Shown: positions 7,881 to 12,076 of the stretch, one piece after another
How positions within the stretch are numbered: the first letter of the stretch is position 1
Layout: each line of letters opens with the position of its first letter
Assembly (NCBI RefSeq): GCF_055900595.2
Contig: NZ_CM148325.1
DNA: 64,000 bases
Reading direction: 5' to 3' (one strand)
The notes under the pieces: model-generated
The model's database searches: none
The model's input: only the letters and a program-made list of their open reading frames with translations
Told to the model about the DNA's origin: nothing
Position numbers and translations under genes: made by a program

Positions 7881-9203
7881 TTATAACCGATGAAATTTTG
7901 CCAGTAAGGCCAGTGAAAATGTTGTCAGCAAAATGGTAATGACTGCGTAAATATACACTCCTGACCATTCCCAACTGTTTTTCACCATAATAACTGGAAG
8001 CCCTGCCATTGCCGCGCCTAAATAACTAAACAAGCCCCTGAATCCAGTAATGGAACCTGCCGCATCTTTATGCGTAACATCAAGACACCCGACAGCGAAT
8101 AACATATGCGGTCCATACAATGCAAACCCCATGATTGTAAACAGAATAGCCGTTAATGTGTAGGAGACGTCCTGCACCAGCGGTACGAGAACGATGCAAA
8201 TACATAAAGCGATGGCAAAGATTAATCCTGTCATCCAGCGGTTACTTTTAAACATGAAATCGGACAAGTACCCCGCCAGTAATCCCCCAGCAAGTCCACC
8301 TGCTTCAAACCAGGATATAATGGAGTTCGCTTTAATCAGGCTCCAGTTATGAACCTGAGAATAATAAATTTGTGGCCAGTCATTGAGGATGGTGCGTGCA
8401 ATATAGACCGACATATCCCCGAGGATAATGAGCCAAACTAATGGGTTGGTAAGAATATATTTAACGAATATTTGCCAAAAACTGAGATCAACCGGACTTG
8501 CTTTAACTTGTGCAAGTTCTGTCGGGTCGTTGCGCCACTTACCGACGTTAGGCAAACCGAGCGTGCTGGGACGATCTTTTATCGTAAATAAGGCAACAAT
8601 CCCCATAATCAGTGAGATTACACCCGGAACATAAAAGCCCATCTTCCAGCTGCCACTAAAAGCAATAGCAAAGCTTGTCAGGAGAGGCGCAAGACTACCG
8701 CCAATATTATGCGCAGCTTCAACAACTGCCCACCAGCGTCCGCGTTCATTTTTCGAGAACCACGAGGCCATAATTTTTGCCATTGGCGGAAAACTGGTAC
8801 CCTGGAGAATAGCATTAAGGCTATACAGGATATAGAACGCAGCAACGCTGTCTGAAAAACCGAAAAGAATGTTAACAATACCGACGCCAATAAGTACGGG
8901 GCCAGTCATCGCTCGTGGGTTAATTTTATCGACTAACATGCCACCTACAAACTTCATGGAGCCATAAAGAATGTAAAAGACCGACGACATGATAGCGAAA
9001 TCTTGTGCGGTTAATGACGTATCCGTTAACATCGCTGGCATGGCCGCAGAGAAATTCTTGCGGGTTAAGTAAAATACGGCATAAGAGATAAATACAGAGG
9101 TGATGATTTCAATGCGAAATTTTTTATAAGTATGATCAACTTCTTCTTTTGGTTTGACCACCGGTTGGTCGGCCTGGCTGAAAATAAATTTTTTCAAACT
9201 CAT
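7881..9203 (-). CDS. MFS transporter of the organophosphate:Pi antiporter family (GlpT/UhpT/PgtP-like)
   Basis: 440 aa; N-terminal DHTYKKFRIEIITSVFISYAVFYLTRKNFSAAMP and WFSKNERGRWWAVVEAAHNIGGSLAPLL align by eye with the recalled GlpT sequence; not part of K-12 cirA-yeiG interval. Confidence 0.75.
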   Translation of the reverse strand: MSLKKFIFSQADQPVVKPKEEVDHTYKKFRIEIITSVFISYAVFYLTRKNFSAAMPAMLTDTSLTAQDFAIMSSVFYILYGSMKFVGGMLVDKINPRAMTGPVLIGVGIVNILFGFSDSVAAFYILYSLNAILQGTSFPPMAKIMASWFSKNERGRWWAVVEAAHNIGGSLAPLLTSFAIAFSGSWKMGFYVPGVISLIMGIVALFTIKDRPSTLGLPNVGKWRNDPTELAQVKASPVDLSFWQIFVKYILTNPLVWLIILGDMSVYIARTILNDWPQIYYSQVHNWSLIKANSIISWFEAGGLAGGLLAGYLSDFMFKSNRWMTGLIFAIALCICIVLVPLVQDVSYTLTAILFTIMGFALYGPHMLFAVGCLDVTHKDAAGSITGFRGLFSYLGAAMAGLPVIMVKNSWEWSGVYIYAVITILLTTFSLALLAKFHRL

Positions 9204-9235
9204 TGTGAGTTTCCTTTTCTGTGAACCTTATGGCG

Positions 9236-10123
9236 CTATAATTTTTCTTCTATAAAAAAGAGAAGCGACTCGAAACCATTAAAATTAATCTGGTCAGCAA
9301 TTTTTTCCCGGGTTTTAGGTTTTGCTTTCCATGCCACGCCATTTCCGGCATGCAAAAGCATAGGAATATCATTGGCACCATCTCCACAGGCAATGATGTT
9401 TTCACGGCAGATAGCTAACTCTGTCGCTAAATTTATCAGGGTTTGCTTTTTCTTTTCTGCATTCATAATAGGTAAGGTAATTGTATCAGTTAACAGATCT
9501 TCCTTAATGCGCACAGAGTTAGAAAATGCAAAATCAAGTTGATATTTTTCCTTCAATCGCTCAGTAAAAATATCCAAACCTCCAGATATAATTGCCGTCT
9601 TGAATCCTTTTTCTTTTAGTATGGGAAGAATAGTTTCAAGACCTGGTGAAAGAGTCATCTGTTCACAAACTTGATGCAATATATCTTTATGCGTTCCTTT
9701 AAGCATGGCAATTCGCCGGGTAAAACTGGTATCAAAATCGATTTTCCCTTCCATCGCTTCACGGGTCAGTGCGGTGATTTTTTCAGAGATGCCGAGTCTA
9801 CGGGCTATTTCATCGACACCTTCTTCTTCAACAAAGGTGGAATCCATATCAAAGGCAATAATTCCCTGATCCGGTAAGACCCTGGGTTTACGGAAAAAAT
9901 CAAACTGATGATTATCAGCACGGTGACGTAAACCAGCATAAAAAGCAGGGTTGGTAACATCATTTGGTAATACTAGCTTTAGATACTCTCTATTTATTTG
10001 CCTACTGTAATTCGTTGTTAGCGAAAACACCGAGGGGGAAATCTTTAAATGTTGCAGATAATCTTTCAGACATTTTTGGGTGATGTCGATGCCTGTTGGC
10101 GACAAGAAATAAATAATCGTCAT
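9236..10123 (-). CDS. HAD-superfamily phosphatase, SerB-like (phosphoserine phosphatase family)
   Basis: 295 aa; HAD motifs FDMDSTF (DxDST), ISGG, GDGANDIPML in SerB-like order; upstream of and likely co-transcribed with the transporter. Confidence 0.75.
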   Translation of the reverse strand: MTIIYFLSPTGIDITQKCLKDYLQHLKISPSVFSLTTNYSRQINREYLKLVLPNDVTNPAFYAGLRHRADNHQFDFFRKPRVLPDQGIIAFDMDSTFVEEEGVDEIARRLGISEKITALTREAMEGKIDFDTSFTRRIAMLKGTHKDILHQVCEQMTLSPGLETILPILKEKGFKTAIISGGLDIFTERLKEKYQLDFAFSNSVRIKEDLLTDTITLPIMNAEKKKQTLINLATELAICRENIIACGDGANDIPMLLHAGNGVAWKAKPKTREKIADQINFNGFESLLFFIEEKL

Positions 10124-10222
10124 TTACCGCTCCTTTTTATCTGCAATGATTATAATAAGATTTCGTAGAAGCTGATGTATCTGACAATCACAGTTGTGAA
10201 TGTTAAATAAAAGATAAAAAAG

Positions 10223-10276
10223 TACTTTTTTGATACTTTGAAATAATAAGATACTAAAAGTACCATTTTTGATATC
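10223..10276. promoter_or_regulatory. Two direct repeats GTAC(N1-2)TTTTTGATA(C/T) in divergent promoter of the islet (candidate operator)
   Basis: GTACTTTTTTGATAC at 10223-10237 and GTACCATTTTTGATATC at 10260-10276; AT-rich 209 bp intergenic region. Confidence 0.4.
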
Positions 10277-10332
10277 TTTACCAGGATATAAAGAATAACT
10301 ATTTTTCAACGTTGAAGGAATCATTTACAAAT

Positions 10333-11685
10333 ATGGAAAGCTGCATAGATATATTCAAGATAGTTATTGGTCCATCCAGTTCCCGCACAGTCGGGCCAAT
10401 GCGTGCGGCTTATAATTTTGTGTCACAATTGAAACAGCAAGAAATGTTACCTTTGTTGCGGAAAATTGATGTCGAACTTTATGGTGCGCTGTCATTAAGC
10501 CGCAAGTGCCATAATGTTGATGTGGCGATTTATCTCGGTTTGCAAGGACACTTACCTGACAGCGTTGACATTCGCATGGAAATGTCCGCCATCAGGCGTG
10601 CAGAAACTGAGGCGACGCTGGAAGTTATGCCTGGTGTCAACGTCAGTGTATCCATTCTTTCTAATCTACAAGCGCATCCGGGGCACCCTTATGCGATGAC
10701 ATTTCGTGCCAGAGATGACTGGTTTACACTTTATGAAGAAACCTGGTTTTCTATCGGCGACGGTCAAGTGCTAAAAGCAGGAGAGGCGATTATTCCTCCA
10801 TCAGTCACTCCACATCCTTTTGAATTCCAGAACGCAAACGAATTATTAAAACTTTGTCAGCAAAACGGATTATCTGTCGCGGCATTAATGATGAAAAACG
10901 AACTGCACTGCCAGACAGCAGCTTTTTTGCATGACGATCTTCATAAAAAATGGGAAGTAATGAAGGAGGCGGTTTATCGCGGGATGCATACAGAAGGATT
11001 ACTTCCAGGTCCGTTTCAGGTTAACCGTCGTGCCTGTGCTTTATATAAATCGTTGCAGTCAAAGGGGTTTTCCAATGACTTCCTGACTACGCTCAATTGG
11101 GTCAATACTTTTGCCATTGCGGTGAGCGAAGAAAATGCTGCGGGTGGACGTGTCGTGACAGCACCCACCAACGGCGCGAGCGGTATTATCCCGGCTGTAC
11201 TGTGCTGGTATGATAAATTCATTCACGAGCTTGATACATACTCCGTTACCCGCTTTTTACTGACCGCTGGTGCCATCGCCATTCTGTTCAAAAAAAATGC
11301 CTCTATTCTGGGTTCTGAAGTTGGATGTCAGGGGGAAATAGGTGTTGCCAGTTCAATGGCGGCAGCAGGATTAGCAGAACTTATGGGCGGGTCAGTGGCT
11401 CAGGTACTTAGCGCGGCAGAAATTGCGATGGAGCATCATTTAGGTTTGACCTGTGATCCAGTTGGCGGGCAGGTACAAATTCCTTGTATTGAACGAAATG
11501 CTATTTCAGCTGTGAAAGCTATCAACGCAACGACGATGGCGTTGAGTCGCATAAGCGAGCCGTGCATTACGCTGGATGAGATAATTTCCGCGATGTATGA
11601 AACCGGAAAGGATATGAGCGCTAAATACCGTGAAACTTATCATGGCTGTCTGAGCAAATTGCAGCCAAGAAAAAAGGATGCGTAA
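10333..11685 (+). CDS. L-serine dehydratase-like protein (single-chain Fe-S type, SdaA/SdaB/TdcG family)
   Basis: ORF track begins at TTG 10312; ATG at 10333 gives [23 protein letters not shown] matching recalled SdaA N-terminus [23 protein letters not shown]; about 450 aa. Confidence 0.8.
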
Positions 11686-11686
11686 G

Positions 11687-12076
11687 ATGAAATATAATAC
11701 GATGAATAACAACGAAATTATTTTATCACTGTGCGCTCGCATTAAAGAAACGCGTATCTCATTATCATTGACCCAACAGCAGTTAGCCGAGCGTGCATTG
11801 GTGGGCATAGCAACGGTCAAGCGGATTGAAAAGGGGGGAAGTTTAAATCTTGATACTCTCATTTCTCTTCTGCGCGCGCTGAATAAATTGCAAAATCTCG
11901 ATGCCATATTGTTCGAAGCAGAAATGCGTAATTTCAACGAAAATAGTTCCAGCGGCGAAGGGGCAGGGCGACTACAGGTACGCCAGCAACTGACAGATTT
12001 AAACCAGAAGTCTCCAGCCCCGCACGCAGATGACCATAATTTTAGTACGGCGCTGGAAAATACCCTCTGCTGGTGA
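11687..12076 (+). CDS. XRE-family helix-turn-helix transcriptional regulator
   Basis: 129 aa; HTH segment LSLTQQQLAERALVGIATVKRIEKG; AGGA 8 nt upstream of ATG 11687; follows sdaA-like stop directly. Confidence 0.65.
   Translation: MKYNTMNNNEIILSLCARIKETRISLSLTQQQLAERALVGIATVKRIEKGGSLNLDTLISLLRALNKLQNLDAILFEAEMRNFNENSSSGEGAGRLQVRQQLTDLNQKSPAPHADDHNFSTALENTLCW

Follow-up and report, generated by a model that had tools for sequence, protein, structure and literature searches.

The HipB antitoxin of E. coli carries an unstructured tail that ends in a universally conserved Trp, and it binds cooperatively to operators of the form TATCC-N8-GGATA (PMC3376134). Here we describe what appears to be a related arrangement, found in a window of 64,000 nucleotides of the E. 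coli chromosome (the whole stretch of DNA that was analysed; assembly GCF_055900595.2, contig NZ_CM148325.1), in the control region between two divergently transcribed operons. We consider it likely that two repeats in this region are copies of one 16-bp imperfect palindrome, which together would form the operator pair of a co-encoded HipB-like XRE regulator and would serve both divergent promoters. Behind this proposal stand the sequence itself and its conservation, the dyad symmetry of the sites, the fact that they co-occur with the regulator, and the architecture of the promoters. The likeness to the described system extends to the predicted protein, which like HipB would form a small XRE-fold dimer and whose disordered C-terminal tail likewise has a conserved Trp at its end (PMC3376134). 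It also extends to the candidate operators, which like those of hipBA are palindromic, have a TATC/GATA half-site core and occur in several copies (four hipBA operators in E. coli), and to more distant members of the regulator family whose genes are directly followed by a gene for a HipA kinase. The differences lie mainly in geometry and placement. The half-sites are 4 bp closer here (TATC-N6-GATA as against TATC-N10-GATA in hipBA), and the hipBA operator TATCC-N8-GGATA does not match the TATCA-N4-TGATA type of this family. The operators are 39–40 bp apart rather than the 28 bp of the hipBA O1-O2 oligonucleotide. Further, the sites precede catabolic operons, and in the genomes in which the regulator is linked to sdaC there is no convincing site in front of the regulator gene itself.

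The repressor and Cro proteins of the phages 434, lambda and P22 provide a second point of comparison, being helix-turn-helix dimers that bind a dyad of 14–17 bp with an A/T-rich center. In the phage OR, which lies between the divergent promoters PR and PRM, the operators stand in tandem, and one bound protein can repress one promoter and help the other. Tandem operators between divergent promoters are predicted here too, but they are 39 bp apart instead of adjacent, with one of the two promoters far downstream of them, and the locus has neither a partner Cro nor a phage context. The C proteins of restriction-modification systems (e.g., C.Esp1396I) are likewise XRE-fold dimers that occupy two neighboring palindromes jointly and act as activators as well as repressors. 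Their operators, however, abut and overlap the promoter, and the present regulator gives only weak fold matches (none at E ≤ 0.001) and has no restriction-modification context.

The repeats belong to an accessory four-gene islet situated between cirA and yeiG, which is carried by 89 of 5426 complete E. coli genomes (~1.6%) and is chromosomal in every case. Its minus-strand operon begins with a SerB-type phosphoserine phosphatase (9236–10123), which scores above the SerB equivalog cut-off (TIGR00338, 207.6 bits versus 144), and continues with an MFS transporter of the organophosphate:phosphate antiporter type (UhpC/PgtP/GlpT-like; 7881–9203), which falls below all curated cut-offs in profile scoring. 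The plus-strand operon, sda-xre, begins with an L-serine ammonia-lyase (an L-serine dehydratase of the Fe-S type; 10333–11685) and continues with the HipB-like XRE regulator, a protein of 129 aa with an HTH_3 domain (11687–12076; PF01381, E = 2.4e-9, above cutoff). Because an antiporter-type MFS protein is combined with a phosphatase above the SerB cut-off, the islet looks like a unit for the uptake and breakdown of phosphoserine. The two operons are separated by an intergenic region of 209 bp (10124–10332), and the repeats do lie within it, as a sequence-only reading of the window had stated. An Rfam scan of 10050–10420 at E ≤ 1 returned no match and thus no known RNA element, and a terminator scan of the region found none.

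Several further features of the islet were recorded. It always adjoins yeiG (7881–12076 in the window) and is present in E. coli, E. whittamii, Citrobacter and Salmonella arizonae/diarizonae. Protein identity between the E. coli and the Citrobacter/Salmonella versions (loci L003–L010, L026 and L027) is 88–92% for the MFS transporter, 57–64% for the SerB-like phosphatase, 72–77% for the dehydratase and 69–74% for the regulator, an uneven divergence that points either to a mosaic history or to constraints that differ greatly. The regulator ORF has two possible starts, an ATG at 11678, which would give an 8-nt overlap with the dehydratase stop, and the annotated ATG at 11687. In Citrobacter, the dehydratase ORF extends about 10 codons into the regulator gene. 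The overlap of the two ORFs fits with translational coupling. In strain E200086 (L001 9658–10804), yeiB, which lies downstream of the islet, is annotated as frameshifted.

Site 1, GTACTTTTTTGATAC, occupies positions 10222–10236 (15 bp) and site 2, GTACCATTTTTGATAT, positions 10260–10275 (16 bp); both are candidate operators. The sequence-only reading had described them as two direct copies of a GTAC-Tn-GATA unit. The copies exist, with the first displaced by one position from the 10223–10237 given there; with one more base, the second reads GTACCATTTTTGATATC at 10260–10276, the coordinates stated there. The repeat finder reports that the similarity of the two copies reaches ~30 nt at a distance of 39 bp, and that there are inverted-repeat relations both within and between them. 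Within the window, the loose pattern GTAC-N6-7-GATA has 7 matches versus 1.75 expected, which is weak by itself; since this enrichment is only mild, significance must come from comparison with other genomes.

For the orthologous islets, one genome per species was scanned with the regulator alignment, which yielded 38 loci. Eleven of these have the same four genes beside yeiG (E. whittamii, Salmonella enterica subsp. arizonae and diarizonae, and eight Citrobacter genomes), and together with one other E. coli allele they provided 12 intergenic regions for alignment besides that of the window. The two sites emerge from the 12 orthologous regions as phylogenetic footprints, with a column identity of 0.87 for site 1 and 0.92 for site 2 versus 0.40–0.55 in the remaining segments; the other conserved blocks are ATCACAG (0.98), ATTATAAT (0.89) and an A/T-rich block beside site 1 (0.75). 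Conservation in orthologous loci was the check proposed with the sequence-only reading, and both copies are kept in all 12 islets. Their conserved form is AAAAGTAT[T/C][G/A]TTTTT[G/T]ATA[C/T], and they are retained 39–40 bp apart as an imperfect palindrome, GTATCA-N4-TGATAC. It is this palindrome, rather than GTAC-Tn-GATA, that constitutes the unit: the C of GTAC is a deviation specific to E. coli and the T-tract is the center of the dyad. A further GATAC between the sites (10250–10254, plus strand), which had been counted as a third copy of the motif, falls in a spacer with an identity of 0.53. It is specific to E. coli and, because it is not conserved in the orthologous regions, is probably not part of the operator. 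Also E. coli-specific is an exact 10-nt direct repeat, ATAATAAGAT, at 10152–10161 and 10243–10252, one copy of which overlaps the minus-strand −10 region while the other lies between the two operators.

Measured from start to start, the two sites of the window are 38 bp apart, whereas all the other E. coli carriers examined have a spacing of 39 bp. The T-tract of site 1 (10226–10231) is T6 here and 7 nt long in all five other aligned E. coli alleles, which is why the site has only 15 bp in the window; elsewhere it reads GTAC-T7-GATAC (16 bp) in other E. coli and GTATTGTTTTTGATAC in Citrobacter. One of the five other alleles has GTAT in place of GTAC. None of 86 other carriers matches the window exactly, the best reaching 99.4% with one gap, and the missing base reflects either a mutation private to the window or an error in sequencing the homopolymer. 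A phase-variable homopolymer switch in site 1 was considered and rejected, as T6 is private to the window, the five other alleles all have 7 nt and the tract is short. In both window sites, the imperfections are confined to the left halves (GTAC), which have a C at position 4, where T stands in 52 of the 56 sites collected from all loci (see below); the consensus of site 2 outside the window is GTATCATTTTTGATAT, with the core TATCA-N4-TGATA. Given that C4 departs from the consensus and that the spacer of site 1 is 1 bp shorter, the E. coli sites may be weak here, and T6, if real, should weaken site 1.

When every 16-mer was scored against GTATCA-N4-TGATAC, distant loci gave strong matches, and these came in pairs. 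Defining a pair as two sites with at least 9 of 12 matches each and a spacing of 38–40 bp, we found 36 pairs in 535 kb of fetched DNA versus 0.35 ± 0.57 in dinucleotide shuffles (maximum 2). All 36 lie in a regulatory region beside a homolog of the regulator. The weight matrix built from 56 unique sites is dyad-symmetric (G1 T2 A3 T4 C5 A6 ... T11 G12 A13 T14 A15 C16), with T4, T11, A13 and T14 near-invariant; AAA and TTT often flank the family consensus, GTATCA-N4(A/T)-TGATAC.

The distant regulator homologs in whose loci the paired motif recurs come from other families and orders and show 32–57% identity. In Mangrovibacter, Limnobaculum, Budvicia, Leminorella, Erwinia oleae, Zophobihabitans and some 15 Gilliamella genomes, the homolog has 35–57% identity and its gene stands tail-to-tail with one for an L-serine dehydratase; in Erwinia oleae, the dehydratase gene is ~3.4 kb from the regulator gene. 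The dehydratase gene in these genomes is preceded by a serine/threonine transporter gene scoring above the TIGR00814 cut-off, and palindromes paired at 38–40 bp stand upstream of the resulting sdaC-sda operons in Mangrovibacter, Budviciaceae, Erwinia and Orbaceae. The pairs are placed 100–340 bp upstream of the transporter start codon, and the Budviciaceae have two of them. Further family members, recovered by a profile search of 1.84 billion proteins, display additional arrangements, with the regulator downstream of sda, divergent from sda or divergent from sdaC-sda-sda, and new pairs are found in the metagenomic loci L048 (39 bp spacing) and L052 (40 bp spacing). Altogether, the regulator is beside an L-serine dehydratase gene in eight of the eight lineage types checked, in four different gene arrangements. 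The high-GC family members L046 and L053 have no recognizable motif beside sda.

Two loci served as controls. The sdaCB operon of E. coli K-12 resembles the predicted targets in that it combines a serine transporter with an L-serine dehydratase and has a CRP-type site upstream, but it has no regulator homolog nearby and no palindrome pair. In the Gilliamella locus L037, where the regulator is cut to 44 codons and sdaC is lost, there is no pair either. Thus, the earlier suggestion of an operator role for the repeats, with the co-encoded XRE regulator as the candidate binding protein, gains support both from their conservation and from the way the paired motif tracks the regulator homologs. Upstream of K-12 sdaC (L044 ~2893–2912), the stretch AAAAGTATTGATTTTTTCAG looks like site 1 as far as the left half and the T-tract go but has no right half, a resemblance that may be coincidental or mark a relic.

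The best curated match of the regulator is the Y4mF/HipB antitoxin model TIGR03070, at 41.2 bits and hence below the cutoff of 71.65; it has no match to NF007271. AlphaFold predicts with confidence a five-helix HTH domain (residues 8–88) followed by a disordered tail (residues 90–129, pLDDT below 50), and neither the domain annotation nor the AlphaFold model contains a recognizable sensor or ligand domain. The recognition helix GIATxKRxE and the C-terminal Trp (W129) are invariant in 28 family members, and the invariance of the helix matches the conservation of the half-site. A PDB sequence search and a fold search recovered generic XRE neighbors only, none at E ≤ 0.001; the fold-search neighbors include several HipBs and restriction-modification C-proteins, and 434 Cro is among the sequence matches. 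Hence, the link to HipB rests on gene context and on the tail rather than on structure. The Pokkaliibacter homolog (32% identity), with which a word-based protein search returned only itself, is followed by a gene for a HipA kinase, and the same holds for three members that are more distant and have WxWGDE at their end (the HipA-linked homologs are those of L020, L045, L050 and L051). In these HipA-linked loci, paired repeats 40–41 bp apart stand in front of the hipB-like gene, and two of the loci also have the half-site TATCA/TGATA. Since these relatives share the paired layout of ~40 bp, it is a family trait older than the link to serine genes. There is no HipA kinase gene downstream of the regulator in the window, where the next gene is yeiG on the opposite strand, and a HipA gene is absent beside every sda-linked family member. 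This suggests that a HipB-type antitoxin scaffold has been re-used without its toxin for the control of amino-acid catabolism. As an aside, two unrelated HipBA modules (L020 6854–6985 and L045 1503–1634) have a common three-site layout before hipB: two sites are separated by 40 bp, and another, near the start codon, follows after 76 bp more. The islet has no such additional operator at that distance, the corresponding position having 1 of 12 matches when inspected by eye.

The best-conserved promoter architecture beside the pair is that of the serB-like/MFS promoter, not that of the dehydratase-regulator promoter. Its −10 hexamer TATAAT (10149–10154, minus strand; identity 0.89) is accompanied by no good −35, and the minus-strand −10 is seen in 13 of 13 sequences at 31–32 nt from the ATG. 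Read toward the serB-like gene on the minus strand, the order of elements is site 2, 23 bp, site 1, 29 bp, TGTGAT within TGTGATTGTCAGATAC, 22 bp, TATAAT, the Shine-Dalgarno sequence and the ATG. The TGTGATTGTCAGATAC element (10177–10192, minus strand) is a CRP-like 16-bp core of which only the TGTGAT half is conserved (ATCACAG, identity 0.98). Its TGTGA core is centered at about −42.5 from the start predicted from the −10, a location of the class II type, and the second half-site (GATAC) has no CRP match. A class II CRP promoter has the sequence TGTGA-N6-TCACA centered near −41.5 and a weak or absent −35. E. coli and Citrobacter share a conserved near-palindrome, ATCACAG(T/A)TGTGAAT (10187–10201), whose left part is the minus-strand TGTGAT element and whose second TGTGA half is islet-specific.

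The gap between the proximal site and TGTGAT is 28–29 bp in the islet, Mangrovibacter, Budviciaceae and Erwinia, with differing gap sequences, and 38–40 bp, or one helical turn more, in the Orbaceae. The Orbaceae element is a near-perfect full CRP site, with an extended −10 located 21 nt after it; the CRP-like element of the Enterobacterales has just one conserved half-site. This preservation of helical phase argues that the bound regulator would contact CRP or RNA polymerase rather than block the polymerase. The layout resembles that of class III-type CRP co-dependent promoters (MelR/CRP, and CytR/CRP in the case of anti-activation), in which a specific regulator acts from upstream of a CRP site at a phase-constrained distance. 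The likeness lies in the gap (28–29 versus 38–40 bp) and in the full CRP site of the Orbaceae; the Enterobacterales members conserve a single CRP half-site, and the start used here is predicted from the −10.

On the other strand, site 2 lies only 57 bp from the sda start codon, and therefore any sda-xre promoter must overlap it. There are two candidates for this promoter. One has a −10, TACCAT, inside site 2 (10261–10266, plus strand; TATCAT in Citrobacter) and a −35, TTGAAA, at 10238–10243. The alternative (10269–10296, plus strand) takes the right half of site 2, TTGATA, as its −35 and has the −10 AAGAAT after a spacer of 16 nt. Neither is conserved between genera in the 13 sequences.

In the mechanism that we favor, the binding protein would be supplied by the regulator gene 1.4 kb downstream of the pair (11687–12076), with one dimer binding each palindrome via the recognition helix GIATxKRxE. 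The two dimers would act as a unit, as is suggested by the spacing, which is fixed at 38–40 bp. At the sda-xre core promoter, which the pair overlaps, the outcome would most likely be negative autoregulation. On the serB-like/MFS promoter, the predicted positions of the sites are about −87 and −125. Being so far upstream, they would exert their effect there without occluding RNA polymerase, most likely by modulating initiation dependent on CRP and RNA polymerase, that is, through co-activation or anti-activation. The binding, the dimer stoichiometry, the transcription start sites and the sign of regulation are the parts of this scheme that we infer.

A different reading of the same protein-DNA pairing makes the regulator a pure repressor or anti-activator, which, like HipB, would shut both operons. 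The serB-like/MFS promoter would be blocked through interference, upstream of its core, with CRP or with the C-terminal domain of the RNA polymerase α subunit, and induction would come from degradation or titration of a labile regulator. HipB is an autorepressor with a Lon-sensitive disordered tail that ends in Trp (PMC3376134), and the regulator shares such a tail. Moreover, the HipA-linked relatives have operators around their own promoters, and the overlap of site 2 with the sda-xre core promoter holds for both candidate −10 hexamers. Yet at the conserved type of promoter the sites are centered ~45 and ~85 bp upstream of the CRP-like element, from where they are unable to occlude RNA polymerase, and a gap that changes while preserving helical phase (28–29 versus 38–40 bp) is more typical of productive contacts. 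We therefore regard pure repression of both operons as possible, though not as the outcome to be expected.

A bolder extension of the HipB kinship, which we consider rather doubtful, is that the regulator is a HipB antitoxin minus its toxin with the L-serine dehydratase in place of HipA as its partner. The C-terminal Trp tail would then dock on the dehydratase, and the enzyme would report serine or Fe-S status to the operator pair in the manner of a trigger enzyme. The dehydratase is the only gene that is always beside the regulator. In an AlphaFold model of a fused Sda-linker-regulator chain, computed from a paired 23-sequence alignment, the last 9 residues have a pLDDT of 68 and form a β-bridge, as opposed to a pLDDT of ~45 for the regulator alone. 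This rise is a weak hint of docking and could be an artifact of the fusion.

It is very unlikely that some other protein of wide conservation (a nucleoid protein, for instance, or a global regulator) binds the palindromes with the XRE protein as a mere bystander. The sites are indeed A/T-rich and lie in promoters with CRP-type elements, and the tie between the XRE protein and the sites is drawn from sequence comparison. However, the pair tracks the regulator gene and not the targets, being missing at K-12 sdaCB and at the Gilliamella locus with the shortened regulator, and it also precedes the hipB-like genes of related HipBA modules that are unconnected with serine. Furthermore, when set against the generally known FNR and CRP consensus sequences, the motif is the reverse arrangement of FNR half-sites and misfits the CRP consensus. 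FNR and CRP as the palindrome-binding factor were accordingly rejected on half-site order and sequence. Least probable of all is that the repeats are promoter hardware without a dedicated regulator (duplicated −35-like TTGATA boxes, UP-like A/T tracts and intrinsic bends): TTGATA is a 5/6 match to the −35 consensus and the promoter scan pairs it with a −10, and promoter-like matches are no commoner in the region than in shuffles (2 versus 2.0), but this reading leaves unexplained the dyad symmetry and the conservation of the left half-site, the fixed pairing at 38–40 bp across orders and the position far upstream of the conserved −10 in the sdaC promoters.

In kind, the operator pair is an ordinary palindromic operator of an XRE protein, and the switch that it would form is conventional but undescribed. 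Our search of the literature found no paper that links sdaC, serine dehydratase and XRE, or that describes the regulator, the sites or the islet; the papers naming both HipB and serine dehydratase are unrelated, as judged by title and abstract. The novelty lies in the regulator family with its regulon, and in a HipB-type module that was apparently re-used without its toxin. The analysis provides small XRE proteins of a family without a name with a concrete predicted operator and regulon. The family is predicted to control sdaC-sda operons in several lineages of Gammaproteobacteria, among them the bee-gut Orbaceae, as well as the putative phosphoserine-utilization islet of ~1.6% of complete E. 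coli genomes, Citrobacter and Salmonella arizonae/diarizonae. For this islet, the analysis points to the bases whose mutation would uncouple the two divergent operons. For the family as a whole, re-use of the HipB scaffold would have retained the operator half-site, the paired layout of ~40 bp and the Trp-ended tail; and if the tail does dock on the dehydratase, a toxin-antitoxin DNA-binding module would have been re-used as a metabolic switch across Gammaproteobacteria.
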